Assembly: GCA_963666835.2 (NCBI GenBank)
Contig: CAXXGO010000001.1
Location: forward strand, 1,632,001 to 1,696,000
From: Phycisphaerae bacterium
Lineage (GTDB): Bacteria > Planctomycetota > Phycisphaerae > UBA1845
Length of the DNA: 64,000 nt
Reading direction: 5' to 3'
Each line of letters begins with the position of its first letter. Positions within the stretch are counted from its first letter, which is position 1. Positions 9,993-51,147 of the stretch are shown piece by piece. The notes under the pieces were generated by a model. That model searched no databases and was not told the DNA's origin. It worked only from the letters and a program-made list of their open reading frames with translations. The translations under genes and the position numbers were made by a program.

Positions 9993-10423
9993 CGTGACGG
10001 TGGTTCCACAGACATTCGTGCTGGCTTCTATGTCACGGGGTGTGCCAATCGCGCCTGAGCAAGCCTCGAAACTCGCTGTCGGAGGCGGGAGGGTGCCTGT
10101 AAATCTTTTCTTGTTAAGGACTTAGGTGCGGCGGCGGAGACTGCATCCTGGATGGTCGGCGGGTTTTGCCCGCCACGCCGACGCGCAAGACCTGCCGGTC
10201 GATCGGCAACACTCGCCGCATTCTGCGCCTCGGCGGGCGGAACGCACGTGGTGTTTGTACGCCGAATGCCGCTTCAATGCGGGCGTTTTATATTCGCAAA
10301 CGGATCTGCCGGCCTGGAGGAGAAGTTGTCAGGCAGGGGAACTCCGGCCGGCCGCGCCCCTTCCTTAACTGGGGCCGCGGGGAGGCCGTGGCGGCTGCCC
10401 GTCCGGCCAAGTACGATGCTCGA

Positions 10424-11832: not shown

Positions 11833-13320
11833 TCAGAGTCTCTCCACGATGCTACGAAAGTGCTCTCCGCGTTCGACGAAGTTGGCGTATCGATCGAAGC
11901 TGGGAGCCCCCGGCGAGAACAGAACGGCGTCACCGGGTCGCCCCAGGGCCTTTGCGGCTTGGACTGCCTCAGCCAGATCGGCGGCCTCGGTGACAGCGAC
12001 TGCTCCTTGTGAATTCGCGGTTTCTCGCAAGTTCTCAGCAAAACCGGGGCCGGATTCCCCCGTGCAGATCACCGCTTTGGCCGATTCGGCCACGTCAGCG
12101 GCCCAGCCTTTCGGTGGAGTGCCCTTATCCTGTCCCCCGACGATGGTGATCACCGGTCTGTCGAAACAGTTGAGCGCCGTGAGAGTAGCAGCCGGCGAGG
12201 TCGACTTGGAGTCGTTGTAATAATCCACGTCGTTAATCGAGCGGATTAGCTCCAAACGGTGCGGTAGGCCGGCGAATGAGCGCAGGTATATGCGCATGCG
12301 GCCCTCGTCGATCCCCAGATGCCGGCCGACTTCCAGAACGGCTGCGGCGTTCATTTGGTTGTGATCGCCCGGAACGACGAGGTCGATAGGAGGCTCCGGG
12401 GCGTGAATGCGAGTCAGGCGGTCCGGGCGGTCCTTCAACAGGCCGGCGAGCAGTGCCTCGGCAGCCGGGTGAAGCTGCCCGACGATCACGCGACTTTCCC
12501 CATCGGGGTCGCGCGCGACGTTCAACTTGGCCGCCGCATACTCAGCCAGTCCGTCATAGCGATCCAGATGGTGAGGGGCGAGGTTGAGCAGGACGGCGAG
12601 GTTGGGAGCCCAACGGATTCGCGGCAGATCCTCCAGTTGAGCATTCGAGAGTTCGAGAACGACCCAGTCCGTCTTGCGGATCCGGGGCAGGTCAGAGAGT
12701 AGTGACTTGCCGATATTGCCACCGAGATGTACCCCAGTATAACGGGCATGCCCACTCCGCAGATGGGCTTCGAGGGACACCGCCAGCATTGTACATGTGG
12801 TGCTCTTACCGTACGAACCGGTGATTCCGATGACCGGTGCGGGGCAGCGTTCACAGAACAGGTTGATTTCGGTGGTCCACGGGATCCCACGTCGCAGGAT
12901 CTCCTGAAACAGAGCCGATTCTCGCTTTCGAACGGCCGGGTTGACGATGACCAGGTCACTCTTGTCCAGGATGCGAGGGTCGTGGCCGCCCAACTGCAGT
13001 TGAATGTCGAGGTCCTCGACATCCTGGATCGATTTCTCGAGCTCATCCGGGTCGGCTTGGTCGGTGACGGTTACGGCCGCGCCCTGGGATGCCAGCCATC
13101 GCGTGACCCCGATCCCGCCCCCGAACCTACCGAGCCCGATAACCAGCACGCGAGCATCATTGAGGGTCTGCGAAGGACTCTCGGGCTGTCTGGGGCGGGT
13201 GTCGGGCACCGGATATCTCGCCTTCTCTTTGGATTCCTCTACTACCGTTGCGCGCTGGCCCTCAATGGGCGGATCTGCGGCGCGGTAACGCTCGGCATTG
13301 TAGACCGCCGGCCGGTTCAC
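11833..13320 (-). CDS. murD: UDP-N-acetylmuramoyl-L-alanine--D-glutamate ligase MurD
   Basis: GLGRFGGG, GITGSYGKSTT, GGNIG, ELSNAQLE, HLDRY, GLPHRLE, NDSKST, SPGAPSFDRYANF.ERG. True start may be downstream of 13320. Confidence 0.92.
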   Translation of the reverse strand: MNRPAVYNAERYRAADPPIEGQRATVVEESKEKARYPVPDTRPRQPESPSQTLNDARVLVIGLGRFGGGIGVTRWLASQGAAVTVTDQADPDELEKSIQDVEDLDIQLQLGGHDPRILDKSDLVIVNPAVRKRESALFQEILRRGIPWTTEINLFCERCPAPVIGITGSYGKSTTCTMLAVSLEAHLRSGHARYTGVHLGGNIGKSLLSDLPRIRKTDWVVLELSNAQLEDLPRIRWAPNLAVLLNLAPHHLDRYDGLAEYAAAKLNVARDPDGESRVIVGQLHPAAEALLAGLLKDRPDRLTRIHAPEPPIDLVVPGDHNQMNAAAVLEVGRHLGIDEGRMRIYLRSFAGLPHRLELIRSINDVDYYNDSKSTSPAATLTALNCFDRPVITIVGGQDKGTPPKGWAADVAESAKAVICTGESGPGFAENLRETANSQGAVAVTEAADLAEAVQAAKALGRPGDAVLFSPGAPSFDRYANFVERGEHFRSIVERL

Positions 13321-21300: not shown

Positions 21301-24300
21301 GGTTCCCCACGGCGCCGTCGTTCTATCCGATTCACACGGAGGATTCCCTCGCCGCCGCCTTCCACGACTTGGTGATCTGCCAGGACTGCAGGAGTTTTCC
21401 GTCGGCTATCGCATACGCCGCGCATGAGTACATGCACACGTGGGAGCAGTATCCGGACCTGTATGACTACGACCTTTTCACCGGCATGATCGTGAACTGT
21501 CCGATCGGTTTATGGGATATCATGGCGGGAACTCGCGGCGACGGAGCGATGGTCCATCCGACGCCGGTGCTTAAGGATTCGTCAGGGTGGATCAACCCGA
21601 TCGATCTACGGACCGTCCTCACGCCGGGGGTGGAGACGTCACTGACATTGCCACCGGCGGAGTTTGACCGTGATGGGTATTTCTTCCTGGAGAACGCCGA
21701 GCGTCCCGGGGAAGCCTACTGGTTCTGGTCCGCCGGAGAGGGCTTCGACGAGAACCACCCCGGTAACGGTGGGATGTTGATCATGGCGACCAACGACGTG
21801 TACAACCCGGCCAATCCGGATGCCGTTGCTGAGCAGCAGCGCGAAGCTCCATACGGTTACCGAATCGTCCAGGCTGACGGAGAGGGCGATCTGGAGGCTT
21901 GTAGCTCGACCGGTAACCGGGGGGACGGCGGGGACATTTGGCCGGGCACCAGCGGGAATACCGAGTTCAACTTCGATACGGTGCCGGCGGCGGTATGGGA
22001 TGCGCAGAACCGGTGGACCGGACTCAACATCAGTAATATCGAGCCGGACGGAGAAGGATCGGTGCGGCTGACCTTGTCCTGGACTCCGACCAATCTCCCG
22101 GGCGTCGAGTTCGTTGATCCGCCGGGCGGCGCCTCGGTGGGGTCCATTTACCAGGTGCGCTATGAGGCCACTGATGTGTTCGGTGGCACGACGATCCACC
22201 TGTACTATACGACGGACGAGAACGACATCACGGTAAAGAACCCGCCGGCGACGGACTCGAACTACATCGGCACGCGGGTCAAGGGGACGCCGGGTACGAT
22301 TCAGACGAGCATGGATTGGGACATCAGTCAGGTGCCGGACGGGCAGTATCATGTGTTCGCCAAGCTGGTTCCCGGTCAGGGGGTCGGCGGAACGGAGATC
22401 AAGCACACGGAGCCGTATCCTGGCCGCAACAACGCCGGGACCGGGGCGCTGACCATTAGGAAGGTCGACGTTTCATCAGCCATCGACGCCGCTGCGAGGG
22501 CGGAAACGTGGATCATTGAGTGCGTTGATCCGGCTGGCGAAGACTGGCAGGTGTACAGCTCTCTGACCCAGCCGGAGCCCGAGAATGATGAGGCGTACCC
22601 GTACGAACTGGCTGAGACGTGTCCCAAGAGCGATCCGGATGACCCAGATTGTGTGCAGTACGAGTACACCTCCGCCAACGGGGCGGTGACTTTTCTGATC
22701 ACTCTGGGCGATGAGCCCTTCTGTTTAGGGGACCGGTTCGTCTTCAACACGACGGGCGTATCTGAAGTGAGCAAATCGGTTACGGTTGAGGATCACCGGA
22801 TCTATGCAAACCCGGTGGCGGTCATCGATGCTTCGCCGCTGTCCGGACTTCCGCCCCTGAAGGTGGACTTCGACGGCCGCGATTCGTACGACCCGGACGG
22901 GCTCCCGCTGACTTACCGTTGGAATTTCGGTGATGGTGCTACGTCGACCGGATCTCCGGTCAGCCACACCTTCGATGATGCCGGCGTGTTCACCGTGGTC
23001 CTGAGGGTGGCGAACAGTCTCGGCCGGTTCGGCGAGACTGCGGTTGACATCAATGTGATCAACAATCGGCCAAGCGCCGTGATCGTTGCGAAGCCGGTCA
23101 GCGGCCCCGAGAACTTAACAGTGTACTTCGACGGGTCCGGATCGAACGATCTGGAGACCCCGGCGGACCAGTTGATCTACCAGTGGGATTTCGGGGACGG
23201 CAAAGCCGCAAACACGCAGGGCAACCCGGGGGTCTTCATAACTACCGAGCATTTCTATTCCAAGGACGAAGATGGCGTGAAGTGCACGCAGACGAATCCC
23301 TGCAAGTTCAATGCGGCGCTGACCGTCACGGATACTGGTGGGAAGAGCCACACCGCGACCACGGAGATCTGGGTGGGTAATACCAACCCGGTGCCGAGTG
23401 TGTCGGTGTCCCGGACGGAGGGCTCGGATCCGCTCGACATCGTGTTCAACGCGATTAACTCATACGATGCGGACGGTGACGACCTCAAGATCACGTGGTT
23501 CTGGGGCGATGGATCCCAGGATGGTCCGTATCCCGTCACCGGTGCACCCGGCGTGACGAGTGGCGACGTAGTCCATACGTATCGGCTGCCGACCGGGGAG
23601 ACCTCGTACTCCTTCACGCCGACGGCGTTACTTACCGACGGGTTTGCCTCGGTGACTTGGACCGGTTCGAAGATCACGGTTACGGAGCCGAAGGCGGGGT
23701 CGTCCGACCCCCGCGCGATCTTCACGATCACACCCGAGCCGCCGTTAGAGGTTGGGGCCGAGTTTACCGCCGATGCGTCACTGTCGTTCGATCGACCGAC
23801 GGGCGATCCTAATAGCAAGATCGCGTCGTACTCGTGGGACTTCGGAGACGGTACGGCGGTTGTCAGCGGGAAGACCGTTAAGCACACGTATGTAGAACCT
23901 GGCACCTATGTGATCGTGTTGGAAGTCAAGGACGCGGCGAGTCCGGTGAACAAGGGCCGGACGTCTCAGACGGTGCTGGTCGTGGGCGAGCTGCCCGATG
24001 ACTCGGATGATGCCGATGGGAACGAGCCGCCCGACGTGGTTCTGCTGGCGAATCCGAAGGAGGGTTATGAGGGCTTTACCGAGTTCTCGTTTGACGGGTC
24101 CGGATCGAGCGATCCCGATGACGATGACCTGACCTTCGAGTGGATGTTCGGTGACGGAGAGTCTGCGGACGGGGCTAAGGCAACGCACGTCTATGCGGAA
24201 GCGGGCAACTATACGGTCCGGCTGACCGTTACGGATGAGCACAACGCATCGGCTTACGATACGCAGACTATTGTCGTTAAATCCAATGTCGGCAACCGGG

Positions 24301-24743
24301 CTCCGCAAGCGATCATCGGAACGGGTGTGCGATCCATTCAGGCCGGGGAGAAGATCGAGTTCAACGGACAGAACTCGTACGATCCGGATAATGATGTCCT
24401 GGATTTCGTCTGGAAGTTCAGCCAGGACGATGTGGTGATTGATACTCTGACCGGAGGTGTGGTGGCCAGGACCTTCCAGAGTGAGGGAGCCTATCAGGTG
24501 GTCTTGACCGTGTCTGATGGCCGGGGCGGCACCGACACCACGCAGGCGGTCAATATTCAGGTCTCGGCTAAGGTCGAAGCACCGGATTCCGGCGATGATC
24601 CCGGAACAGGACAGACAACCCCGGATCCCAGCTACACTCAGCGTCCCACGAGCGTTTGCGGCTTGGGCATGGTGCTGAGCTTGTTCGGCTCTTTGGCCGG
24701 GCTGTCGGTGATGCGGGTGACACGCCGGCGGACCGGGTTCTAG
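18318..24743 (+). CDS. Giant secreted M6/immune-inhibitor-A-like zinc metalloprotease with Cys-rich repeats, six PKD domains and a C-terminal membrane anchor
   Basis: Signal peptide; SFVEYWEEISYG..GWV.LP; HEYMHTWEQYPDLYDY; GLWDIMAG Met-turn; PKD motifs such as WNFGDG and WDFGDG; C-terminal CGLG-hydrophobic-RRR. Confidence 0.85.
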   Translation: MKSRNEGTQWARFPAVVSVMAILAVLLSGSVSQAVERKFVVTLAYSPKAFMNDGTGGQPEGGLYNAEEIYKDYFDRVNPGIDSFVEYWEEISYGDVVITGDVEGWVALPWAFEPEAPYGGERSSPEDFINLYDNLSTVCSPGTPLMHIENMVPLHYSYGAGEPFCDCVNAEGEDGVYGPGDCGALITVNYNGELDGWVPSEPLADFDAVGVNVWTPGERFVDVDEDGRWDGLDEKNDMMCHSSLGCQNVCSGMICSDHSGYCTTDADCLGDAYCKRGSLIGAPACGSFCSGTAVPCTGEIAGECAEFGTASQCVVVGCGLMETCGDDRVCSDGSGSCDPDADCPPGEFCDAVTLRCSEADTACDPNVDCPSGASCVGAGPRGCDYPGCGDLAAAAVDWNEDGVYRNPDDCVIVPQISCVVDDDCGTHGRCNTDLNTCAPVVYCTRDSDCPGTGNQCLTEGYDPPVCDLGRIGYPVLEGMNAVSLPDCCDANAESMEDFAQCNTDGHPIICDIHPTYPQCDPRPEGIVCGEPRYACEFHDVDADDVMDVTEPFEDFIIRWEPSGGWSGGVWVPVDREYIKNNYPGNVPALLARVGNGYFNPGDVFYDTAGDVSTKMMQETGGARYLMTRVPKPGSGRYATVGEQAWFDNWWTARYGTSAPPWPGGTGQYPSPNAPVMAPFDPANPLPPSLQGDDLPTSRWFRANKGGFSGDGDGGTPAPPFQHYNAGGDNWGNSILPDAAYGYYDGWVEHDDLPSSKYHLQGDKRFGEITSPLRDTFEYLGHEYPAISGHDFGPHDPNRLGSNGDGFGVAAGPEAVKIFGDKGYDAGNLAIVEWLTWRRDGQSRTLGTQWSIDNHIGDGVSGYHPYASPNSQHQPSGRCSSSTKVACLVDGACPVGETCVRPTTPMGFADYNLDGMIDQGEVRPAGSANYSVDSVLGTPNDGTNSDYPFNRRRMMEDVVEALDPSVDWDDYVDLNMWSTVSGIILVPPDSYNDANRFPTAPSFYPIHTEDSLAAAFHDLVICQDCRSFPSAIAYAAHEYMHTWEQYPDLYDYDLFTGMIVNCPIGLWDIMAGTRGDGAMVHPTPVLKDSSGWINPIDLRTVLTPGVETSLTLPPAEFDRDGYFFLENAERPGEAYWFWSAGEGFDENHPGNGGMLIMATNDVYNPANPDAVAEQQREAPYGYRIVQADGEGDLEACSSTGNRGDGGDIWPGTSGNTEFNFDTVPAAVWDAQNRWTGLNISNIEPDGEGSVRLTLSWTPTNLPGVEFVDPPGGASVGSIYQVRYEATDVFGGTTIHLYYTTDENDITVKNPPATDSNYIGTRVKGTPGTIQTSMDWDISQVPDGQYHVFAKLVPGQGVGGTEIKHTEPYPGRNNAGTGALTIRKVDVSSAIDAAARAETWIIECVDPAGEDWQVYSSLTQPEPENDEAYPYELAETCPKSDPDDPDCVQYEYTSANGAVTFLITLGDEPFCLGDRFVFNTTGVSEVSKSVTVEDHRIYANPVAVIDASPLSGLPPLKVDFDGRDSYDPDGLPLTYRWNFGDGATSTGSPVSHTFDDAGVFTVVLRVANSLGRFGETAVDINVINNRPSAVIVAKPVSGPENLTVYFDGSGSNDLETPADQLIYQWDFGDGKAANTQGNPGVFITTEHFYSKDEDGVKCTQTNPCKFNAALTVTDTGGKSHTATTEIWVGNTNPVPSVSVSRTEGSDPLDIVFNAINSYDADGDDLKITWFWGDGSQDGPYPVTGAPGVTSGDVVHTYRLPTGETSYSFTPTALLTDGFASVTWTGSKITVTEPKAGSSDPRAIFTITPEPPLEVGAEFTADASLSFDRPTGDPNSKIASYSWDFGDGTAVVSGKTVKHTYVEPGTYVIVLEVKDAASPVNKGRTSQTVLVVGELPDDSDDADGNEPPDVVLLANPKEGYEGFTEFSFDGSGSSDPDDDDLTFEWMFGDGESADGAKATHVYAEAGNYTVRLTVTDEHNASAYDTQTIVVKSNVGNRAPQAIIGTGVRSIQAGEKIEFNGQNSYDPDNDVLDFVWKFSQDDVVIDTLTGGVVARTFQSEGAYQVVLTVSDGRGGTDTTQAVNIQVSAKVEAPDSGDDPGTGQTTPDPSYTQRPTSVCGLGMVLSLFGSLAGLSVMRVTRRRTGF

Positions 24744-25271: not shown

Positions 25272-28200
25272 ATGTCCATTACCGTGGTGAGTAAATCGAT
25301 TATTGACGGGGTCAAGGCGATTCCGCGGAAGCTCTTCGGCTCGCGGAACGACCGTCTGCTGAAGGTGCTCAACCGGCACGTTCCGCCGGTGAACTCGTGT
25401 GAAGACGCTCTGCGCGGGGAATACGACAAGCGTTTCGCCCGTCAGGTGGCGGATCAGCGGGTAGAGCAAGCTCCGGAAGAGCAGCGTGCCGTGTTGCGTC
25501 GGCAGATTCGGCTGGACCTCTGCGACGATCTGCGGGAGGCCACGGCGTCCCTTCAGCAGGGCATTCGCCGGCACACCGAGCCTTTGCGGTTCTGGTGGGA
25601 AGGGCTGGAGCCTGCTCAGCGGGTGGACGAATACTATCGCGCGGAGTTCCGCAAGCGTGACGCCCGGGCTATTGAGGAGATGGACGGCGAAGGGCTTATT
25701 GCCGAGGCTTTTGCCATTCTGCGCGAGGCCTCTCGACGGGCGCAGGAGCATCGTCATTTTGACTGCCAGCTAATCGGCGGACGGGTTCTGTTCGAGGGCA
25801 AGATCGCGGAGATGCGCACCGGGGAAGGCAAGACCATTGTGTGCCACTTAGCCGCGTTTGTGAAATACCTTTCGGGGTTGAAGGTTCACATCATCACGGT
25901 CAACGACTACCTGGTAAAACGTGACGCAGAGTTCGCTGCCCCGATCTTCGAGCTATTGGGGGTATCGGTCGGGTACATTCAATCGATGGTCGATCCCAGC
26001 GGGCAGGAGGGCCTGCGCCGCCGGGCGTATGCATGCGACATTACGTACGGAACGAACAGTGAGTTCGGATTCGACTACCTCCGCGACAACATGAAGACTA
26101 ACGTGGCGGATCAGGTGCAGGGCCCACTGGATTACGTAATCGTAGACGAGGTGGACTCGATTCTGATTGATGAGGCCCGTACGCCGCTGATTATCTCGGG
26201 TCCCGCTCACGATGACGTTACGCGTTATCCGCGGGCGGACAAGGTGGCCGAGGAATTGGTGCGGCGGCAGGCGGTTTGGGATCGCCGCGTCGCGTCGACG
26301 GTGCGCCGGTTCGACGGCGAGACGCACAACATTGCCAAGCTCGAAGATGCCATGGCCATCCTCGGCTACAAGGAGAAACGGACGGGATCCGACCAGGATG
26401 GCAGCGTCGAGCCGGACGATGGGGACGATGATTCGGCTGCCGGGCTGCCGACTTTGGGCCCGGACTTCCTGACGGACGATCAGGTCGAGGCGATTCAGGC
26501 CTATGAAAACAACATCCTTCAGATCCTGCCCAGCGAGCAGTACCGCCGATTGTTCATCGTGCAGTCCGAGCGCAAACAGGTCGGCTTGACCCACGAGGGC
26601 GTCAGTCTTGCCCAAGATTCGCTGGATATCGGCAGCCTCTACAGCGGGGCGAACATGGAGTGGCCGCATCTTATTGAGAACGCCCTGCGCGCTCACAAGG
26701 TCTATCTGCGTGATGTGGATTATGTGGTCCAGGAGGGGCAGGTTATTATCGTCGATCCGCATACCGGGCGGCTGATGTATGGGCGGCAGTGGTCCGACGG
26801 GCTGCATCAGGCGGTCGAAGCCAAAGAGCGCGTGAGGGTAAAGGAGGAGACTCAGACGCTGGCGACCATCACCATTCAGAACTTCATCAAGCTGTACCGG
26901 GTCAAAGCGGGAATGACCGGAACGGCGATGACCGAGGGAACCGAGTTCGACAAGATCTACCAGCTCGAGGTAGTAGAGATACCGACGAACCGTCCGGTGA
27001 ACCGCGTTGACCACAACGACAAGATGTATAGCAGCACGGAGCAAAAGTACGAGGCCATTGTCGAGGAGATCCACCAGGTCCACCGCCGAGGCCGTCCCGC
27101 TGATCCGTTTGTGATCGCTGACCTTCTAACGGCACTGCGGCCCGTGCTCGCCGCCCAGGGAGAAAACACGAGCCGGATCGACGAGGCCATTCGGCAGTTC
27201 AACGCTGCCGAGTTCGGCGACAAGCGCGTGATCAACTTCATGTTGGAAGTCTACGACGAGTCCATGGGCGATCTGGCGCATGGGCGGCCCGTGCTTGTGG
27301 GCACGACCAGCGTCGAAAACTCCGAGAGGTTGTCGCGGTTGCTCGAGCGGCGTTACGGCATCGACCACGAAGTGCTCAACGCCAAGAACCACTCGCGCGA
27401 GGCGGAGATTGTGATGAAGGCCGGCCACTGTTCAACGCCGGTTCAGGGCGCGGACAAGACGCCTTTGGGTAATGTGACGATTGCCACGAACATGGCCGGT
27501 CGCGGTACGGACATCAAGCTCGGCGAGGGGGTCGTCTATCCGAAATGCCGGGTCCCCGAGAGCGAGGCCTCCGAGTCGGGACAGAGTGCCTTGTATCCCC
27601 CCGGGACGACTAAGTGCTGTATCAACTGTGAAGAGTACGATCCGGCAACGAACTGCGCGCACTGTTTCAAGCCCAAGATTGATGCCCGTTTCCCTGCGTT
27701 GGGGCGTAAGGTGTGTGCCATCAACGTGCCGTGCGGATTGCACATTGTCGGGACGGAACGGCACGAGGCCCGGCGGATCGACAACCAGCTCCGTGGTCGC
27801 TCGGGACGCCAGGGCGATCCGGGGTCGTCGCGGTTCTCGTTATCGCTCCAGGACGATCTGCTCAAGCTGTTCATGCCGGATTGGATGCTCAAGATGATGG
27901 ACCGCCTCGGGTTCGCCGAGGGTGGCAGTCTGGAAGATAAGCGGCTCACCAAGGGGATCGAACGCGCCCAACGCAAAGTCGAGGAAAGAAACTTCTCGAC
28001 CCGCAAGCATCTGCTCGAGTGGGACGAGCCGATGGACTACCAACGTAAGGAGTTCTACGCCGCTCGTCAGCGCATTTTGGAAGAGCGGGGCCTGACGGAT
28101 CTGATCATTCGCGCGATTGATAATGCCATCACCACGACTCTGGAGGAGTATCTCAGCGGGAGCTTCGATCGGACGTGCATCGTGGAATGGTGCCGCAGCC

Positions 28201-29501
28201 AGTTGGATCTGAACATCGACGAAGACGGATTGGATCTTAGCGATATCGAAGCGGCTCAGCGGAGTATCCGGGAGAAGGCCAAGGACAGCGGGGACGAAGC
28301 GATTCGCACGTCGTTGGGTGAGTATGTCGACCCCGAGGAACCGTCCAAGAACTGGGACGTCGGTGGGTTGCTGCAATGGGCGCAGCGGCAATACAAGGTT
28401 TCGCTGACCCAGAACCAGATGCGCCGAATGGAGCCGAGTGACATCGAGGATGCGTTACTTGAGGCCGCCCACGCACACTTCGATACGGTGGATCTTGCCG
28501 GGATAGCACCCTATCTCGACCCGCACTATCCGCACCGGGCCTTGGCGGAATGGGCGCGGGCTAAGTTCGACATCCAGATCGAAGCCGAAGAAGTCATTGA
28601 TACTCCTCGCGATGAGGTCTCCGCGCTGTTACAGGATCGCGTGCGCGAGGCCTATCATCGAAGGGAAGTCAACTACCCGGTGGAGTCGTGCCTCGAACGC
28701 GCGTTCGGCGACGAGGGGACTGACAACGCGGCCGCCGCCGGCATTGTGGTTCAATGGGCTAACAGCAAGTTCGGCGTCGGATGGACGCTCGAGCAAGTGC
28801 AGGGGATGTCGATCGAGTCGATCCGGAAGGAACTCGTTGAGCTGAACACGACCTTCTTCGACGAGCGGATCGCGGCGGAGGTCGAAGCGAACATCGCCGG
28901 CAAAGACCGGGAGGAGGCCGTAGCGTGGGCGAAGGACCGGTTCGGACGCGCTTGGAACCAACGTTCATTCGACCTGTTTGACGGAGAGCTGAAAGACGCC
29001 CTGGTGGCCCAGGGTCGCGAGATGCTTCGCTGGGAGCTGTCGCGCTTGGAACAGTATGTTCTGCTGCGCATTCACGACCAGGCCTGGAAAGACCACCTGC
29101 TGGAAATGGACCACCTAAAAAGCGCGATCATGCAGCGCCCGCTTGGTGGGGACCAGACCCATCCGCAGAGCCAGTTTGCCATCGAAGGTCGCGATCTGTT
29201 CAACCAGATGTGGACGCGCATCGCCGGTCGGGTAACGGACATTATCTTCAAGGTCCGCACATCCGGGTCCGGGGAAGCGGCGGCTTCGCGACGTTCGCCC
29301 GCGGCGATGTCGGTGCGGCATGCCGACGCGACCGGGGCGGGATTCTCGGGGGCGACGCGCGATCAAGAAGCGGCGATGCGCGCGCAAGGAACCGACGGCA
29401 AGGCCGAGACGATTCGCCGGGAACAACCCCGGGTCGGCCGAAACGAACCATGCCCGTGCGGGAGCGGTAAGAAATACAAGCAATGCCACGGCCGGAAGTA
29501 G
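25272..29501 (+). CDS. secA: Preprotein translocase ATPase SecA, long form
   Basis: [93 protein letters not shown] motif [19 protein letters not shown]. Confidence 0.98.
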
Positions 29502-29607: not shown

Positions 29608-32600
29608 ATGACGGCAGAGTCCGGTCAGTTCTTTATCGATGTCGGGGGTACTTTCACCGACGTTGTTGCCCGAGATCCTGCCGGCCGGTTGTCTACCTAT
29701 AAACTTCTCAGCTCCGGCGTCGTGCGCGGAGTGGTGGGCGGTACGTCGACTGACAATCTGATTCACGATGCCGCGCGCCGCGTGGATCCTCCGTGCTTCT
29801 GGGTGGGTTATCGTCTTTCGCTGCCGACGGACGTCGAGACCTTCACGACGCAGGTCGTGAGTTTCGACGCCAAGCGCGGTCTGCTCGACCTGGATCCGCC
29901 GTTGCCGGCTGCGCCGCGCCCGGGCGACGTTTACGAGCTGTACAGCGACGAGGAAGCCCCGATAGTGGCCATTCGTTACTTGATGGGATTGGGGCTCAGC
30001 GACTCGATCGGCCCGGTCGACGTCCGCCTGGGCACTACCCGAGCAACCAACGCACTGCTCGAGCGCAAAGGGGCGGCAGTGGCGCTCGTTTCCACGAGCG
30101 GGTTCGAGGACATTCTCCGGATTGGCAACCAAGATCGCCCGGACCTGTTCGCTCTGGATATCCGCAAACGTGACGAGCTGGTGACAGCGGTGATCGGGAT
30201 CGACGAGCGCCTGAGTGCGGCGGGGGATGTCGAGCAGTCTCCGAATGGCGATGAGGTCCGGGGCAGCCTTAGGGCCGCGCGGCAATCCGGAATCGATGCC
30301 CTGGCCATCTGTCTGCTGCATGCCCACGTGAATCCGATTCACGAAGACCTGGTGGCGGCGGTTGCGCAAGACGTGGGATTCTCGCAGATCTCGGTCTCTT
30401 CGCGGTTGGCGCGCCTGGAGAGGATCGTTCCACGGGCTGATACCACGGTCGTGGATGCGTACCTCAGCCCGGTGATTCGGCAGTACCTGGCCGCCCTGCG
30501 TGACTCGATACCGGATGCTCGATTGCATCTGATGACCAGCAGCGGCGGCTTAATCGAGGCCGCGGGAGCTTCCGGCAAGGACACAATTCTCAGCGGACCC
30601 GCGGGCGGGGTCGTGGGTTGCGCCCACGTCACCCGGGCGGCCGGGTTCTCCAGGACCATCGGCTTCGATATGGGCGGAACGAGCACGGATGTTTGCCGCA
30701 TAGAACCTCCGCCGGGCGGGTTCGAGTATCAGCATGAGACGGTCAAGGCGGGGGTGCGGATCATGGCCCCGACGCTGGCGGTTGAGACCGTAGCCGCCGG
30801 CGGGGGGAGTATCTGCTCCTTTGACGGTCAAAAGCTTACGGTCGGCCCGCAAAGTGCCGGAGCCGATCCCGGGCCGGCCTGCTATGGACGCGGCGGACCG
30901 CTGACACTCACGGATATGAACGTGTTCCTGGGCCGGATAGTGCCCGATCTGTTTCCGTTTCATCTCGATAAGCAGATTATAGCGAGGCTGCTGGAAGAGC
31001 TGTGCATTCAGGTTAATCGCGGTCGAGCGTCTGCCTTATGCTCAACGGATCTGGCGGAGGGCTTCGTGCGTATCGCGAACACGAACATGGCCGCGGCCAT
31101 CAAGCAGATCTCGATTGCCAAGGGTTACGACGCCCGCGAATACGTGCTGGGGTGCTTCGGCGGGGCGGGTGGACAGCATGCGTGCGGTATTGCCCGAATA
31201 TTGGGTATGCGACGTATCGTCTCGAGCCCCCATGCCGGGGTTCTTAGCGCCCTGGGGATCGGAGTAGCGCCGGTGAAACGGATCGGGCAGCGGAGTGTCG
31301 ACCGGTGTTTGGATGAACATGCCGGGGCGGCCCTGCAGCCAGTGATCGAGGAGCTGACTGATAAGCTGCGTTCGACCTTGTTGGCCGAGGGGAACCGGGA
31401 GCAGGACTTGGCCGAGCCGGTATGCACATGGGATTCGTGCTACGCTGGTCAGGCGACTTTGATTACGGTGCCTGCCGGTGACGCCAACCAGGCACGTATC
31501 GAATTCGAGAACCGGCATCGACAGTTGTATGGCTACACGCACGAGGGACGCCGAATCGAGATACGTATAGTTCGCGTTGAACTTGTCGCGCATAGCGACC
31601 AAGGAAGCGGCCGATGGATCCCGCCGATTTCCACCCGGCCGAGCGCGCGGCGCGTATCAGAGATGGTGCTGGGAGGGCAGCGCCGAACCGTGGACGTACA
31701 CTTACGCGGTGAGTTGTCCGTCGGACGCAGAATTTCCGGCCCTGCGATCATAGTAGAAGACACCAGTACGATTGTCGTTGACCCGGGATGGAACGCCGAG
31801 GTTGGTGACCGCGGCGACATCATCCTGACGGATACGCGGACTACGCCGGTCCGCGAGCATGTGGAGCTTGCCGCGGACCCCATCCAGCTCGAACTGTTCA
31901 GCAACCAGTTCACCGCGGTGGCGGAGCAGATGGGAGCTACCCTGCGCCGCACGGCGCTATCGACCAACGTCAAGGAGCGGCTGGATTTCTCGTGTGCGGT
32001 CTTCACGCCGGCCGGCGATCTGGTGGTGAACGCCCCGCACATTCCGGTGCATCTTGGCGGGATGAGTGACTGCATAAAGTCACTAATCGAAGACGTGCGG
32101 CGTTTCGATCCGGGTGATGTCTACGTGACCAACGATCCGTATCGCGGCGGATCCCATTTGAATGATGTTACGGTGATTACCCCGGTTTACGATGATGATG
32201 GGGCCGAGATTCTGTTCTTCGTCGCCAGCCGAGCCCATCACGCCGAAATCGGTGGCCGTCGGCCGGGGTCTATGCCGCCCGATTCGAAGTGTCTGGCGGA
32301 CGAGGGTGTAGTGATCCGGGTATTCCGCTGGATACGCGCGGGACGACCGCAGACCGAGGCGCTGCGCGCACTACTAAGCGCTTCGCCGTACCCCTCGCGC
32401 ATGGTTGAGGAGAACCTCGCGGACATCGCCGCTCAGGTTGCGGCCAATCATCGCGGGGCGCAGGATCTGCGCGCGCTCGTAGCTCGGTACGGGGTAGCGG
32501 TGGTTCACGCGTACATGCGCCATATACAAAACTCGGCCGAACGGAAGATGCGGGCTGCGCTGAATAGGTTGCCGGGCGGTGTCTCTCGGTTTGAAGATCA

Positions 32601-33438
32601 CCTGGATGATGGAACGCCGATTGTCCTGTCGCTTACGGTAGAAGGGGATCAAGCGGTTCTCGATTTCACCGGTACCGGTCCCGTGTCGCCGGGAAATCTC
32701 AATGCCAACCCGGCTATCGTGACCAGTGCGATACTGTATTGTCTGCGATGCCTATTGGCCGAGGATATTCCGCTTAACCAGGGAGTGCTTGCCCCGATCG
32801 AGATTGTCCTGCCGGAGGGGCTGCTGAATCCGCCGTCGGCGGCGGATCCTCGCAAGTGCCCGGCCATGGCGGCTGGCAACGTCGAGACCTCGCAGCGCGT
32901 CGTCGATGTCGTATTCGGAGCGTTGGGTGTGGTGGCCGCCTCCCAGGGCACGATGAACAACATCCTGATCGGGAATGATCGGTTCGGGTATTACGAGACA
33001 ATCTGTGGTGGGGCGGGGGCGGGGCCGACCTACCCTGGGGCCGATGCCGTGCATACCCACATGACGAATACGCGGCTCACCGATCCGGAAGTGCTGGAAT
33101 CTCGATATCCGCTTCGGCTCCGCCGATTCGCCGTTCGACCCGACTCCGGTGGAACCGGCAGATTCCGCGGGGGAAACGGGGTTATTCGCGAACTCGAGTT
33201 TCTAGAACCCTTGGAACTGTCGATAATCAGTCAACGACGCACCCGGGCGCCGTATGGCCTGTGCGGCGGAGAATCGGGAAGGGCGGGGCGGAACCACTTG
33301 ATACGTTCAGGAGCATCAGTTGGCGCGGATCTGCCCTCGGTAGTCCATGTGAACGTGGATCGCGGCGATAGGCTGATTGTGGAAACGCCCGGAGGAGGCG
33401 GTTACGGAAAGGAGCTTGAGTCGGCCGGAACGGATTGA
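29608..33438 (+). CDS. 5-oxoprolinase / hydantoinase A+B fusion (ATP-hydrolysing)
   Basis: [70 protein letters not shown], then [59 protein letters not shown]. Start set at ATG 29608. Confidence 0.95.
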
Positions 33439-33484
33439 ACATCTGCCAACGCGGTCTGTAGTTCAACGGTGGTCGTCAGACGAT

Positions 33485-35260
33485 ATGAACCCACGCATCG
33501 CCTCAATCGAGAATCTAATCGCTCGTGATCCGGGTCGTCGAAACGTGTTCGGGCTTGTCGTCGCCGACCAGCTCCGCCTAGCCGCCCAGTCGCTCAGATT
33601 GGCCAAGCGGGTCGGGATCGTCAGCGGCTTCTACGTTCCCGGGGCGAAAGCCGGCGAAACCGATGGGCCGCCCGGGGCTAAGGTGATCGGTGCCGCCCTG
33701 GAGAAACTCGGCGCTAAGGTAGATTACATCACGGACCATTGGAACGCGCCGGTGTTTCGCGGGTTGGGGTTGGATCCGATTGTTGACCCGGGAGATTATC
33801 TCGATACCGCTGCTCCGACTCACCTTCTGGCGGTCGAACGGGTTGGACGTGGGCCCGATGGACGGTACCGCAACATGCGCGGTATTGACATAACGTCCAC
33901 AACCGCGCCGTTGGACGGGCTCTTCCTTGAAGCTTCTCGGCGGGGACTGACCACTATCGGAGTGGGCGACGGCGGAAACGAGATCGGGATGGGGAAGGTG
34001 TTCGTAGCTATCCTCGATACGGCGGACCCCACCATGCCCATCGAACGCGGCGCTGAGATCGCTACGGCCGTGACCACCGATTTTTGCGTCGTGGCCGGTG
34101 TCTCCAATTGGGGGGCGTATGGGCTGACCGGGGCGTTGTCGGTTCTGGAGGGGCGGGATCTGCTGCCGTCGGCGGAAGAGGTGGCTCGTGACGTCGAGCT
34201 GGCAGTGAGTGAAGGAGGGGCGGTAGACGGTGTGACGTGCCGGCGAGAACCAACTGTTGATGGGTTGGGTTTGTCTCACAGTCTGCGGATGTTGGAAAAC
34301 ATCCGTCGTCAGATTGCTCCTTCTCCGCTCGCGCGGGGTGCGAAACTTCGCGCCGGCATCCTGGGGTACGGGGTAACCGGGCGGGCGGCGGCTGCTCTGC
34401 TTGCGCTCCGCGGACATGATGTGTGCGTGTCGGATGAGCAGCCGGTGACGTTGGAATCCGGGACCGTCGTGGCGGGGGTGGAGACCGGCGGGCACACGGC
34501 TGACTTTTTGGGGCAATGCGATCTGGTGGTGGCGAGCCCCGGGGTGCGAGCGGATGCGCCGATCCGCAATGCTCTCCACCGCCGGGGCGTTCCGGTCTTG
34601 AGCGAGTTGGAGCTGGCCTACCAGTTGTGCGATCGCCCGTTGATCGGGGTCACCGGCACGGTCGGTAAGCGGACGACCGTTGAGTTGCTGCAAAAGCTCT
34701 ACCGTTCGGCGGGGCGCTCCTTGACCATCGGGGGGAATCGGGGCCGACCACTGTCTGCTCTCCTGGCCGAGTCCGAAAGAGACTCCGCGGACAAGGCAGG
34801 GGACGATCCGATTGCGGTGGCCGTATCGAGTTTCCAGCTTGAAACCGTGGTGCATTTCAACCCGCACGTGGCCGTGTTCCTCAACATCGATGAGGCCCAC
34901 CAGGACCGGCACGAGTCCATGGCGGAATACGTGCGGATCAAAAGCCGCGTGTTCATGAATCACCAGCCCAATGACGTGCTGATCTTGAACTTCGATGATG
35001 AACGGATTCGCCCGCTGGCCCGCAAGCATCAGGGGAGGACGTTCTTCGTGTCGAGCAGGCAATCCGTCGACCGCGGGGCGTGGCTGGATGATGGCACTGT
35101 GTTGTTGAACATCGGTGGGGCAACGGAGGAAATCGGGTTTGCCCGCCCGCGCTTTGCGGAGGATCTGCTGTCTGCGGTTCTGGCCGCCCGGCTCAGCGGT
35201 ATGTCTCGCGACACTCTGGCCGAAGCGCTCCGGCGTCTTGCAGCGACGGAGGTGGAGTAG
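33485..35260 (+). CDS. DUF4392 (D-glutamate cyclase C-terminal-type domain) fused to a truncated MurD-like domain
   Basis: ETDGPPGA, ERVGR..DG.YRNMRG.DI, GVGDGGNEIGMG, GVSNWGAYGL (DUF4392); from about 34340 GYGVTG, VVASPGV, SELELA, GVTGTVGKRTT, GGNRG, SSFQLE, HQDRH (Mur ligase N and central domains). No C-terminal domain. Confidence 0.88.
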   Translation: MNPRIASIENLIARDPGRRNVFGLVVADQLRLAAQSLRLAKRVGIVSGFYVPGAKAGETDGPPGAKVIGAALEKLGAKVDYITDHWNAPVFRGLGLDPIVDPGDYLDTAAPTHLLAVERVGRGPDGRYRNMRGIDITSTTAPLDGLFLEASRRGLTTIGVGDGGNEIGMGKVFVAILDTADPTMPIERGAEIATAVTTDFCVVAGVSNWGAYGLTGALSVLEGRDLLPSAEEVARDVELAVSEGGAVDGVTCRREPTVDGLGLSHSLRMLENIRRQIAPSPLARGAKLRAGILGYGVTGRAAAALLALRGHDVCVSDEQPVTLESGTVVAGVETGGHTADFLGQCDLVVASPGVRADAPIRNALHRRGVPVLSELELAYQLCDRPLIGVTGTVGKRTTVELLQKLYRSAGRSLTIGGNRGRPLSALLAESERDSADKAGDDPIAVAVSSFQLETVVHFNPHVAVFLNIDEAHQDRHESMAEYVRIKSRVFMNHQPNDVLILNFDDERIRPLARKHQGRTFFVSSRQSVDRGAWLDDGTVLLNIGGATEEIGFARPRFAEDLLSAVLAARLSGMSRDTLAEALRRLAATEVE

Positions 35261-36045
35261 TGGATCCTGTTGATTACCGAAGCCTGACCGGTGCGGAGAT
35301 TCGCGCATTGTGCCGAGACGGCAAGTTCGATGGTCCCACCGCCGGCGTTGCCGCGGGTTTCGCCCAGGCCAACCTGATAATCCTCCCCGCCACGGATGCG
35401 CAGAGCTTCGCGGAGTTCTGTCGACTCAATCCCGCGCCGTGCCCGGTACTGGAGGTGACCGAGCCGGGCGACTTCGAGCCGCGGGTATTGGCGCCGGGGG
35501 CGGATCTGCGAACTGATTTGCCGCGCTATCGGGTGTACCGCGATGGCGTGTGCGTTGATGCCCCGACCTCGATTACGCCGCATTGGACTGACAATCTGGT
35601 GTCATTTTTGCTAGGCTGCTCGTTTGGTTTCGAGTCCGCGTTGATGGCATCCGGGGTGCCGGTTCGCCATGTGGAAGAGGGGCGAAACGTCCCAATGTAC
35701 CGGACGAGTATCGCCTGCCGACCGGCCGGGCTGTTCGAGGGTCCGCTTGTAGTGTCGATGCGTCCGATGACCGAGGAGCAGGCCGACCAGGCCGTTCGGG
35801 TGACCGCACCGTTGCCGCAGATGCACGGTGCTCCGGTGCGGATCGGGGCCGCGGAGGAACTGGGAATCGCCGATCTGGATCATCCGGACTACGGAGACGC
35901 GGTGACGATTCGCCCGGGCGAAGTCCCGGTCTTCTGGGCGTGCGGGGTTACTCCGATCGAAGCTCTGATCAGGGCCAAGCTGCACTTCGCGATCACGCAT
36001 GAGCCGGGTCACATGTTCGTCACTGACATACGCGCCGGCGCGTAA
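35260..36045 (+). CDS. DUF1445 / YcsI-family putative hydro-lyase (D-glutamate cyclase N-terminal-type domain)
   Basis: TAGVAAGFAQANL, FCRLNPAPCPVL, DLRTDLPRY, GCSFGFE, NVPMYRT, VVSMRP, HGAPV, PVFWACGVTP, ITHEPGHMFVTD. GTG overlaps the upstream TAG. Confidence 0.93.
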   Translation: MDPVDYRSLTGAEIRALCRDGKFDGPTAGVAAGFAQANLIILPATDAQSFAEFCRLNPAPCPVLEVTEPGDFEPRVLAPGADLRTDLPRYRVYRDGVCVDAPTSITPHWTDNLVSFLLGCSFGFESALMASGVPVRHVEEGRNVPMYRTSIACRPAGLFEGPLVVSMRPMTEEQADQAVRVTAPLPQMHGAPVRIGAAEELGIADLDHPDYGDAVTIRPGEVPVFWACGVTPIEALIRAKLHFAITHEPGHMFVTDIRAGA

Positions 36046-36296
36046 CGCAGGTCGGGTGCCCCATCCTTCGCCCTTCGCCATCTCGCGGTGGACAGAAGGC
36101 CCTGTATACAGATGCCGTCACGGCATACGCACTACGTCCCAGGCGAAGGGTGGGGAATCGATTGCACGAGTGCATCTCGAACTCCCATTCGTCCCCCACC
36201 CATTCCGGCGGTGAATCGGTACGACTATCCGAGCCCGACAAGCGCCGGAATGAATGGCGCACCCACGCAGACTGCAGGCTGGAAGCCTGCGTTACG
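36041..36296. repeat. Nested REP-like palindromic elements between convergent genes
   Basis: CGTAACGCAGG at 36041 and GCAGGCTGGAAGCCTGCGTTACG at 36274-36296 enclose an inverted pair GGGTGCCCCATCCTTCGCC..GGCGAAGGGTGGG and CCCACCCATTCCGGCG..CGCCGGAATGAATGGCGCACCC. Confidence 0.75.
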
Positions 36297-43133: not shown

Positions 43134-43655
43134 ATGTCAGACGAAAGAGCCCGCATCGCCGTGTTTCCCGGGACCTTCGATCCGCTGACGCACGGCCACC
43201 TTGATATTGTGGCCCGAGCCGCCCGTCTCTACGACAAGTTGATCATCGGGGTCGGCGACAACCCGGTCAAGGAACAGGTTTTCACGCCCGAGGAACGCGT
43301 GGAGATGCTCGTCCAGTACACGTCCGATTACGCCGGCGTGGACGTGCAGATGTACTCGGGGTTGACCGTTGAGTTTGCCCGCAATGCCAACGCCGGCGTC
43401 ATCCTGCGCGGGATTCGCGATACGGTTGACCTGCATGCAGAGCTGGAGTTGGCGATAGGGAACATGATCATGGGCGGGATAGAGACCGTGTTCCTGATGA
43501 CCAGCGGCCAGCACGTGCTCACCTCCAGCACGCTAATCAAGCAGATCGTGGAGATCGGGCACTACGACGTAGATCATCTGACCCGAATCGTCCCTCTGGA
43601 CGTTGCTCGACGCCTTGAAGAACGGCTTCGTTTGCGCAAGAACAAGTCAGTTTGA
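43134..43655 (+). CDS. coaD: Phosphopantetheine adenylyltransferase
   Basis: AVFPGTFDPLTHGHLDI, ILRGIR, ETVFL, SSTLIKQI. Confidence 0.95.
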   Translation: MSDERARIAVFPGTFDPLTHGHLDIVARAARLYDKLIIGVGDNPVKEQVFTPEERVEMLVQYTSDYAGVDVQMYSGLTVEFARNANAGVILRGIRDTVDLHAELELAIGNMIMGGIETVFLMTSGQHVLTSSTLIKQIVEIGHYDVDHLTRIVPLDVARRLEERLRLRKNKSV

Positions 43656-46600
43656 TCCCGTGAAAGCGATCTGGAACGCGGCGAAATCCGGCAGATCCAC
43701 GTCACCGTCCTTGTTGAAGTCGAACGTCGCGGATTTGCTGGAACCGCCGATTCCGGGCCCGTTCCAATGCTCGGTTAACTGGTGGAAGTCTGTCTGATCG
43801 ACGTCCCCGTCAAGATCGCCGTCGCCGGTGGCCGGCTCCAAGGTGCGCAGTATCCGGAAGCCGATCTGGACGTCGGTCAAAGTGGCGGCCGTGTGCGTGC
43901 GAGAGTCGGTTCGCAGGCCGATATGGTCGATGGCGACGTTCCAGCCACCGCCGCGCAGGACTCGGTTGGCCAGATGCCCGCTGTTGCTGACGCGGTCCTG
44001 GATCCACTCGTAAACATTGCCGGTGATGTCGTACAAACCGAAGGCGTTGGCGTCGGCGGTGGTTGTCGTGCCGTCGGACAGCGTATTGGTCCCATCGTAG
44101 AAACCTACCGGCGTTGTGCCTCCGATCGTACAGTCGATCGCGTCCTCGAAGGGGTCGTCGCTGCAGCGGAAGTTCGCGTCCGCGCCGCCGACGATTGCGT
44201 CACGGCCGAAACCGTAGACATGATTTGCGCCCCAGCCGTCGTTGGCACCGACGTCCCACGCCGCGGCTTTGTACCACTCGTTGTACGGACTTGCCGTCAG
44301 GGCGTGGTCATCCATCGGCAGGCGGTATCCGCGGCAGGTCTCCACGAGGTCGGCTCGCTCGGTGCTGTCGAGATCCCGAACCGCCCAGTCGGCGGAGGTG
44401 ATGGCGGTGGAATGCCATCCACCCAGGTCCGTTGCATCGGACTCCGTATAACAGCGGTCGTCCGGCGACATGCCCTGATCCAGCGTCAGCCAATTGCAGT
44501 ACTTGGTCGCCCCGTACCAGCTTACTCCGACCACCGGGTGGTCTGCAAAGCCGCCCTCCGGAGCGAAGGAGCCCCCGGCGTATTGGATGCGGCTCTTCGA
44601 GGCGTCGAACATCAGAGCGTTGGTTGAGGGAGACGTGCCCTCGGCACCGGTGATTTCATCGTGGACGTACACGTCCCCCGCGTTCAGGTCGAAGTACATG
44701 TACTGCCCGCGCTCCGACGTGAGGTTGCTTTTGGCATCGTTGAGGAACTCGGCGAACTCGGCGTTGGTGGTGGGGAATGTGCCCATCACGTACGAGTGAG
44801 TCGGTCCGTTCGGTTGTTCGACGCTACCTAAGATCGACACTTCGCGGGTGACGACGAGCGGTTCCACGATTGTCAGGGTGATCTTGCGTTCCACAGCGAT
44901 GTCCCCGCCGTAATCGAACTTGAGCAGGGCGACGTACGAACCGTCATCCATCACCGCGGCTACGTCGGTCCGAATGGAAACGAGAACCTGAACAGACTCG
45001 CTCTCGGTCAAAGTGCCCCCGGCTTGATCCTGCCCTTCGATAGCCAGCCAGTCGACGGGCGGGTCAGTGGATGCGGTCCAATCCAGAGTCTCTCCCTGGC
45101 CGATGTTCGTAAGGGTGTACTCGGTTGCTGCCGGGGTAAACGGTCCGCCTTCGCGGCCTGTCACCCGCACATTGTCCGTCGGCAGCACGGAGAGGTCACC
45201 ACCGACGGTGAGCCGGACCGTGCGGTATTCAGTGTGTCCGCTGGTAAGATCCGCGAAGGCAACCTCCGTCGAGTGAACGCCGGTGTCCAGGAGGTTCGCA
45301 TCCTCATTGACCGACAGCGTGATCTGCCCGGTGAATCCCGGCAGCAGCGTGTCAGCGTAGGATGACGCGCCGTTGACATCCAACCAGTCCGCATCGGTAA
45401 CGCTGATTTCATAGTAGATGGACGGCGTGCCGATGTTCTCGATTTCGTAGACCGGATCGTCTCCCGAAGCAGCAAACGGCCCCCCGCTGTTTCCGGTCCA
45501 TTCGAAGTCCGGGCTGTCCTCCTGCTCGGCGGGCGAGATGCTCAGCGGGTCTTTGACCGTCAGATTGACCTCCCGCGAGATGCTACTTCCGGCCGTAGTG
45601 TTACGAAAGACGATGGTCTCGGAGTATTCGCCGACCGGGAGTGTCTCAATACTGTCATTAGTTTCGGGAATAACCGTTACCGTATCGTCGGGGTCCCCGT
45701 AGGGCTCCAGGACGCCGGCGATGGACGATCCCCCGTTAAGGTCGAGCCATGCCGCCGTACTCGTCACCGTGTACGCCAGATCGGTACTCGAGAGGTTCAC
45801 GGCCTCGATCGACGTTTGCAGCGGCGGATCGACCGGAACGCTCCAGATTGTCGTGATCTCCCACCCGTCGGGCGAGTCGACGTCGAGCGGCTCGGCCACC
45901 GAAAGGGTGAACGACCTGGTTTCCACGAAGCCGGTGGTCACGTTCTCGAACCGGACCGTGGCAGTGTAGTCGCCCGGGGGGCGAGTGGTGGCGACGGCGT
46001 TAGTCTCGACGTCGACAATGGCTTCGGCTTCGGCCGTCAGTTGTCCGGTGTCCGACGCCGCATCGTTGATGTTCAACCAGCGAGCCCCGGTCTGGGTGAC
46101 CGTCGCGCTCCAGTCCATAGCCGTAGCGGATGTGCTGGTCAGGATGTAACGTGCGAACGCGTTGGTGAACGGTCCCCCGTACATCCCATCGGCGTCGAAC
46201 CCTTCGGCCGGAGCGACCGAAAGAGGCTCGGACAACAGCAGGCGAATCTCACATTCAGTGGTTTCTTCGGTGGTTACGTCGGCAAACTCAATTGTGGCGA
46301 TGTGGTCCAACTTGGCCTGGACAACGCGGAATCCGAGATCTGGTGAGGTCGTGTCCGCGGGGAGGGTCTCCGCGTGATCGGCGCGAAGGGCGGCGTCGGC
46401 GGGGGGGTGACTCCAGTGTCCGCCGCGTACCCCGCGTTCAGTGGGGTGGTCATCAAGGTCCGGGCGAACGTCCTGGACCCATTCCGCGACGTTGCCGGTC
46501 ATGTCATACAGGCCGTAAGCATTATCGTCGGCGTTGGTTTCAAAGTCCGTCCCGTCTCCAATGACGTCTCCGCTGCCGTCGTTGTAGTGTGTGCCGTCAT

Positions 46601-50822: not shown

Positions 50823-50958
50823 GAATCGAGCCTCCATGCCCGTTGCGGGGTGGCAAGTTCCGGTTGCCTCGGCCGCCGTTGCGCGGTTCCGTTCCCTGTA
50901 GACTTCTGCTTTGTCACGCGTAGAGGTTCTGGTCCAATCCGCATTGTGTCCCGTCCCT

Positions 50959-50985
50959 GCACTGCTCAAGAACAGTGGCACACCC
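50959..50985 (-). repeat. Short REP-like palindrome (second copy at 56413-56435, + strand)
   Basis: GTGCCACTGTTCTTGAGCAGTGC versus GTGCCACTGCTCTTGAGCAGTGC. Confidence 0.6.
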
Positions 50986-51147
50986 GAACACCCAGGCGTG
51001 ACGCCCCGCTGGCCGGCAGCGCATACCACCCCCGTACCACCATGTAGGCCATTATCGGCTGTTTCCCCCAAAACCGCCCACGGGATTTACCAACGTAGCG
51101 GTAGAGGAAGCGGTACCGGAAAGCACCGAGGGTTTCCAGCCAGCCCC

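Follow-up and report, generated by a model that had tools for sequence, protein, structure and literature searches.

A conserved pseudo-MurD domain in a 5-oxoprolinase operon of Phycisphaerae and its possible role in a D-glutamate to L-glutamate route

Operon structure

In this study, a stretch of 64,000 nucleotides (nt) from a Phycisphaerae bacterium (assembly GCA_963666835.2, contig CAXXGO010000001.1, positions 1,632,001 to 1,696,000), here called the window, was analysed for an operon that joins a 5-oxoprolinase (OplA), a fusion of a DUF4392 domain with a MurD-like head, and a DUF1445 protein. The head has the features of a pseudo-ligase, and the three products may form an ATP-driven route from D- to L-glutamate gated by a cell-wall precursor. 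The genes and domains of the operon are as follows.

29608-33438, + strand: fused oxoprolinase open reading frame (ORF), 1276 amino acids (aa); PF05378+PF01968+PF02538
33485-35260, + strand: DUF4392::MurD-like ORF, 591 aa; PF14336, PF21799/PF21377, and PF08245, with PF02875 absent
33485..34324, + strand: DUF4392 domain, residues 1-280; PF14336 245 bits
34325..35260, + strand: putative pseudo-MurD domains 1+2; TIGR01087 193.8 against a cut-off of 211.95
35260-36045, + strand: DUF1445 ORF, 261 aa; PF07286; NF003969 387.7 bits, cut-off 324

The ORF coordinates agree with the original prediction of three co-oriented genes with a 46-nt gap and then a 1-nt overlap (TAG/GTG), and the Pfam scan gave the domains that it had named (PF14336, PF07286, PF08245, PF01968, and PF02538). 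The observation itself is confirmed, and the interpretation built on it is partly supported. Each of the three genes is present in one copy in the genome (6.0 Mb, 92% complete), and the named homologs of their products are from Phycisphaerae/Planctomycetota. Among the 39 family genomes that bear this DUF4392 gene, coordinate counts find the three-gene order in 21 and oplA immediately 5' of the DUF4392 gene in 30. Therefore, the operon is not a chance assembly, and the co-conservation on which the original prediction depended is borne out.

Oxoprolinase and DUF4392 domain

The 1276-aa protein has the fused hydantoinase A and B domains of the OplA type, and its closest solved relative is the N-methylhydantoinase 7HK5 (1288 aa, E 6e-129). 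In a tree, the OplA of the operon and that of relatives with murI but without the cyclase are orthologs, with no long basal branch. The product of 29608..33438 is probably an ATP-dependent 5-oxoprolinase/hydantoinase A+B of the OplA type. Its specificity for 5-oxo-L-proline is assumed to be ordinary, 5-oxoprolinase being an L-specific enzyme.

The DUF4392 domain matches the archaeal protein TON_0340 (E 8e-41), and its predicted model reaches a template modelling (TM) score of 0.87 of the target. PF14336 is above cut-off, all six acidic metal ligands of TON_0340 are present, and the ligands E58, D60, E118, D162, E166, and D248 are conserved in 118-120 of 120 homologs. It appears to be a D-glutamate cyclase C-terminal-like domain with a binuclear metal site, and homology to DGLUCY and the intact metal site suggest that it cyclises D-Glu. 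In an Omnitrophota record (L069:7986-11724), DUF4392, a murL-like gene (NF041275 200 bits, below cut-off), and a full murD stand in tandem, which again, and independently, connects DUF4392 with the handling of glutamate in wall synthesis; DUF1445 was not found in that genome.

Pseudo-MurD head

The match of TIGR01087 to the head covers profile positions 3-300 of 441, and the head model superposes on MurD 3LK7 with a root-mean-square deviation (rmsd) of 2.9 A over 314 columns. Domain 3, the D-Glu-binding domain (PF02875), is absent from all 120 sequences compared (the query and its 119 best homologs), as are R302 and D317. After position 559, 16-63 residues follow in 115 of the 120 fusions, and DUF1445 follows in the remaining five.

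MurD residue numbering was transferred to the head by motif; the residue roles, including D-Glu binding by T321, K348, S415, and F422, are those given in the accessible part of PMC9780078. The Walker A motif reads GKR, with Ser replaced by Arg (R396) in 119/120 fusions. The position of Glu157, a Mg ligand in MurD, is Ala (A446), again in 119/120. Among 140 ordinary MurD-like controls, which were the yield of a profile search, Ser/Thr is found in the Walker A motif of 139 and Glu157 in all 140. The Ile139 equivalent is changed to Arg or Lys in the fusions (R/K419), the Walker A Gly-Lys (K115) and the Asn271 equivalent are largely retained, and the equivalents of D35, G73, N138, Q162, H183, and K198 among the UDP-MurNAc-L-Ala (UMA) contacts, and that of R186, are kept in 111-120 of the 120; those of T36 and R37 are not. 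Three distant fusions (two from Desulfarculaceae and one from Planctomycetota) have identical changes in the ligase residues. About ten of 1.84 billion representatives score as the dead-head subfamily, all of them DUF4392 fusions or fragments. The fusion also stands alone in L032-L034, and a second group, 43-46% identical, is alone at 13 metagenome loci, some of which are near-duplicates. An ordinary murD is encoded elsewhere in the window.

11833..13320, - strand: intact housekeeping murD; TIGR01087 312.7 bits, above cut-off; PF02875 present

Since domain 3 is gone, the Walker A Arg and the change of Glu157 to Ala are fixed, and an intact murD is separate, the head is, as judged by its residues, a conserved pseudo-ligase. 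For the same reasons, a catalytic role of the MurD-like module in the physical tie to peptidoglycan precursor metabolism that was originally proposed is not supported; the head may instead sense a UDP-MurNAc-peptide. In genomes G203 and G204, the head is deleted and DUF4392 is fused straight to DUF1445, downstream of oplA. Because these genomes dispense with it, the head appears to be an add-on and not a catalytic step. These bacterial DUF4392::DUF1445 proteins (G203:C51 and G204:C316; L349, L350) have the domain order opposite to that of DGLUCY.

DUF1445 as a candidate racemase

PF07286 and NF003969 above cut-off place the 261-aa protein in the DUF1445/YcsI/UPF0317 family, and its model matches 2PIF in a fold search (Z 32.2, rmsd 2.4, 248 aligned). 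Cys120 and Cys228 are invariant in 20/20 DUF1445 sequences, and each sits just before the N-terminus of a helix in the secondary structure of the model, as in two-cysteine racemases of the MurI and DapF/proline racemase types. DUF1445 also occurs fused to OplA, to PxpB/C domains, and to DUF4392, and may therefore be placed between cyclase and oxoprolinase. The original prediction had left an epimerisation step to one of the two DUF domains; the invariant cysteines and the fusions make DUF1445 the likely epimerase and a candidate 5-oxoproline racemase. Since its fold matched just its own family and, as the sole other above-background match listed, the NrpR-like 3NEK (Z 9.5, rmsd 4.6, 169 aligned), this activity is only inferred.

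DUF1445 is beside oxoprolinase genes again in L057, L064, and L072, and in OplA::DUF1445 fusions. In two of these records (L057:7054-12726 and L072:5795-11685), a gene for a class IV aminotransferase comes after DUF1445, DUF4392, and pxp genes; L072 additionally has alr and a DUF4392::PxpB fusion. Clustering of DUF1445 with DUF4392 is said to have been mentioned by Niehaus in 2017. No report of a DUF4392::pseudo-MurD fusion or of a 5-oxoproline racemase was found in the literature searched, in which subscription journals were largely uncovered and supplements excluded. Within that literature, the fusion and the racemase assignment appear to be new, and the single parts and the oxoprolinase-DUF1445 clustering are already known.

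Distribution and phylogeny

The sample comprised 92 family genomes with a completeness of 75% or more. Of these, 39 carry the DUF4392 gene: 37 have the head and two (G203 and G204) are head-less with DUF1445 fused; a 40th gene is truncated by a contig end (G184). DUF1445 is present in 34/39 carriers versus 1/53 non-carriers, and OplA in 35/39 versus 13/53. The opposite is seen for murI (0/39 versus 19/53) and alr (1/39 versus 12/53). Both murI and alr are absent in 38 of the 39 carriers; murD is found in 35 of them and in 76/92 genomes overall. Fusion, murI, and alr are all absent in 22 family genomes. Fisher tests across genomes gave p 8e-6 (murI) and 5e-9 (murI or alr), which are set aside since related genomes are not independent.

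A tree built from RpoB only with FastTree (90/92 family genomes) splits 36 genomes, among which every murI and every alr except one are found, from 54 genomes, which hold all fusions (support 99). All but one of the 54 are without murI and alr. Therefore, the exclusion of fusion and murI is one deep event, and an independent-pairs test of it was null. In six lineages of the 54-genome clade (genus g5, genus g138, G197+G222, G152, G123, and G206; genomes well assembled and 93-98% complete), the DUF4392 gene is missing with murI and alr also absent. Of these, G123 retains secA-oplA, followed by other genes, and G206 has an Asp/Glu-racemase-like gene. Therefore, the module is dispensable, and an essential role in D-Glu supply is unsupported. 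Four genomes in three lineages (G158, G168, G187, and G189) keep the fusion with OplA and DUF1445 both absent; of these, G168 and G187 have secA directly 5' of the fusion.

Within the sister clade, murI and alr substitute for each other. In sister-clade genomes without murI, alr adjoins a D-amino-acid-transaminase-like (Dat-like) gene (G233:C240, G161:C10, G074:C4, G162:C1, G234:C45, G235:C250, and G144:C71). The fusion is found in 2/151 genomes of a class-wide sample and extends beyond Phycisphaerae to Desulfarculaceae. Three carriers outside the family have no murI, and have alr and a DUF1445 gene elsewhere, in one case as OplA::DUF1445.

Sources of D-amino acids

Of the two genes that the original prediction had singled out, murI is absent from this genome as from all 39 family carriers, and a Dat-like gene is present. 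No murI (PF01177), alr, or MurL was found in this genome, and the vicinities of murI in relatives led to no replacement gene in it. MurL was considered as a hidden source of D-Glu and was not found here; it was likewise not found in 43/92 family genomes with a single-protein query that had no positive control. PF01168 matches in five genomes were rejected as Alr, being short, negative for TIGR00492, and read as YggS. The genome has murC/E/F, a dcw cluster, and murD outside that cluster. The Dat-like gene is present in 89/92 family genomes, below the curated cut-off but with that family as best match. DapF, which moonlights as a glutamate racemase in Chlamydia according to the accessible part of PMC5885031, was found in 5/5 genomes tested and is a candidate rival source of D-Glu only. 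This genome and its 54-genome clade keep murD and the dcw cluster along with a Dat-like gene, yet are, with one exception, free of murI and alr.

Proposed mechanism and alternatives

The favoured scheme can be described as follows. The DUF4392 domain would cyclise free D-Glu to 5-oxo-D-proline, as homology to DGLUCY and the metal site suggest; the two cysteines of DUF1445 would racemise this to 5-oxo-L-proline; and OplA, by its family function, would open the latter to L-Glu with ATP, the cost of which would make the D to L direction one-way. A Dat-like transaminase could feed other D-amino acids in as D-Glu. By binding UMA or a later UDP-MurNAc-peptide, the dead head may gate the cyclase, closing it when D-Glu is scarce or opening it when precursors are abundant; a gate would be expected since D-Glu disposal would starve MurD in racemase-less cells. 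The D to L direction follows from ordinary stereochemistry, because DGLUCY acts on D-Glu and oxoprolinase is L-specific. Cyclase-only genomes favour disposal since cyclisation alone can dispose of D-Glu and cannot supply any, and avoidance of murI, which is absent in the 39 family carriers and the three outside carriers, is expected because MurI and a D to L route would form a futile ATP cycle. Thus salvage fits the dispensability of the module, the cyclase-only genomes, the optional head, and the murI avoidance. Overall, a precursor-gated, ATP-driven D to L salvage or disposal route is given a probability of about one half, with its activities, ligand, and direction all deduced from sequence. 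The racemase-independent link between D- and L-Glu through pyroglutamate, as originally proposed, is supported as the best reading.

Several points weigh against the salvage route. Conservation does not extend to the Thr36 and Arg37 equivalents in the UMA site, so that the ligand of the head may differ from UMA; TON_0340, the only lone DUF4392 protein assayed, is reported as a weak Mn phosphatase; no racemase is among the fold-search matches listed for DUF1445; a RacX-like racemase is present in G168; and alr occurs in carriers G053 and G236-G238, in which a transaminase futile cycle is also possible. Salvage also requires a further source of D-amino acids in genomes without murI and alr, for which DapF is a candidate. 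A racemase-free supply of D-Glu, ranked below salvage, is a doubtful alternative that stays viable because 38/39 carriers have no recognised MurI- or Alr-type racemase. DUF1445 would then racemise the lactam from L-Glu or spontaneous 5-oxo-L-proline, which a D-specific OplA, or DUF4392 pulled by MurD, would open to D-Glu; the head would switch on as UMA accumulates, and the transaminase would yield D-Ala, replacing MurI and Alr. The retention of murD in most carriers, the presence of murC/E/F, murD, and a dcw cluster in this genome, in which PF01177, alr, and MurL were not found, the near-universal Dat-like gene, the exchange of murI and alr in the sister clade, the lack of murI in 3/3 outside carriers, and the precedent of E. 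coli MurI activation by UMA all agree with it. However, the murI exclusion is a single deep split with a null independent-pairs test, six lineages lost the module without a known replacement, four genomes retain the fusion alone, DapF and the Dat-like gene offer other sources, and an ordinary-looking OplA would need reversed stereospecificity. Lactam formation is also thermodynamically favoured, which counts against supply. Of the two roles originally proposed, salvage therefore stands better than supply. It is unlikely that inversion of L-Glu as pyroglutamate by DUF1445, ATP-driven and head-switched, is a new D-amino-acid entry supplying all D-Glu and D-Ala in Phycisphaerae without MurI and Alr; if true, DUF1445 would be a first 5-oxoproline racemase, and the second domain of human DGLUCY would thereby gain a function too.

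Other readings concern the head. It is rather improbable that the head docks a substrate, with the fusion acting on UDP-MurNAc-peptide (editing or breakdown, Glu release, or a phosphatase/pyrophosphatase reaction) and OplA and DUF1445 clearing the released glutamate or pyroglutamate. The new basic R396 and R/K419 at the former Mg-ATP place could bind extra carboxylates, and the solitary fusions (13 metagenome loci and L032-L034), TON_0340's activity as a phosphatase, and the Omnitrophota DUF4392-murL-murD tandem would suit it, but the TON_0340 cavity is described as small in the accessible part of its report, and G203 and G204 lose the head yet keep the three-enzyme set. Slightly less probable still is a head that binds no wall precursor, as an ATP/ADP sensor or structural appendage on the known oxoprolinase, DUF1445, and DUF4392 set. 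The kept Walker A Gly-Lys and Asn271 equivalent, the drift at T36/R37, and the loss of the head in G203/G204 are consistent with it, whereas the seven equivalents (D35, G73, N138, Q162, H183, R186, and K198) kept at 111-120/120 and the absence of any carrier with murI are not. That the module works as another MurD-type ligase, to which DUF4392 would deliver D-Glu, is highly improbable: the fold of domains 1-2 is intact in the model and the K115, H183, and K198 equivalents are kept, but Ser116 to Arg and Glu157 to Ala are fixed, R302/D317 and domain 3 are absent in 120/120, and an intact murD is present.

Genomic context

The other features noted in the window are as follows.

25272..29501, + strand: secA, upstream neighbour, conserved 5' of the operon in relatives; its 1409-aa product has long insertions
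36053-36295, 3' of DUF1445: short imperfect inverted repeats, REP-like, strain-variable, matching other contigs from the same public runs
10166-11821, - strand, adjoining murD: membrane-anchored protein with two Fe-S motifs, presumably resembling reductive dehalogenase/QueG domains
18318-24743, + strand: very large secreted-looking Cys-rich metalloprotease-like protein with PKD-like repeats (by eye)
43647-51071, - strand: very large secreted-looking protein in which formylglycine-enzyme-like domains recur (by eye)

The end of secA and the start of the operon are 106 nt apart on the same strand, and no terminator-like site was found in this gap; a promoter/terminator scan of the operon region gave a result at chance level. 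It is possible that secA and the operon share one transcript. The whole stretch is covered without difference by one contig of a public run, possibly that of the source sample. A close strain is present, in pieces, in a second public study.

Comparison with known systems

The operon may provide a bacterial model for both domains of human DGLUCY, as a cyclase and a candidate 5-oxoproline racemase, and a case of a Mur ligase probably recruited as a pseudo-enzyme sensor. Mouse DGLUCY converts D-Glu to 5-oxo-D-proline, with no glutamate racemase activity according to the accessible part of its report (PMC5339696, Ariyoshi 2017). Both domains of DGLUCY/C14orf159 are present in the operon, with identities to fish DGLUCY of 53% (DUF1445) and 38% (DUF4392); the metal motifs are shared, as are the two cysteines. 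However, in the operon they are split, in reverse order, and coupled to OplA, and DUF4392 bears the dead MurD head. TON_0340 (PDB 4FC5/5GL2-4; Sohn 2016, PMC5132392) shares the fold and the six acidic metal ligands; unlike the fusion, it is a stand-alone archaeal protein, assayed just as a weak phosphatase in the part of that paper available. The pxpABC/oplA and ycsI clusters of B. subtilis also have DUF1445 beside an ATP-dependent 5-oxoprolinase, but no cell-wall-derived domain, as far as the accessible part of PMC10448178 describes them; the papers found assign no function to YcsI.

The head shares domains 1-2 with MurD ligase and differs by having neither domain 3 nor the Mg ligands. The MurD2/MurL pathway and moonlighting DapF (PMC5885031, accessible part) likewise concern D-Glu in murI-less genomes, although MurL was not found in this genome. 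E. coli MurI is activated by UDP-MurNAc-L-Ala (in the accessible part of PMC12844806), and the operon as proposed here would similarly tie the D-Glu level to the substrate of MurD. The fold of MurI is unrelated, however, and the operon would use a recruited pseudo-enzyme and probably act in the opposite direction, as a mirror image of MurI.

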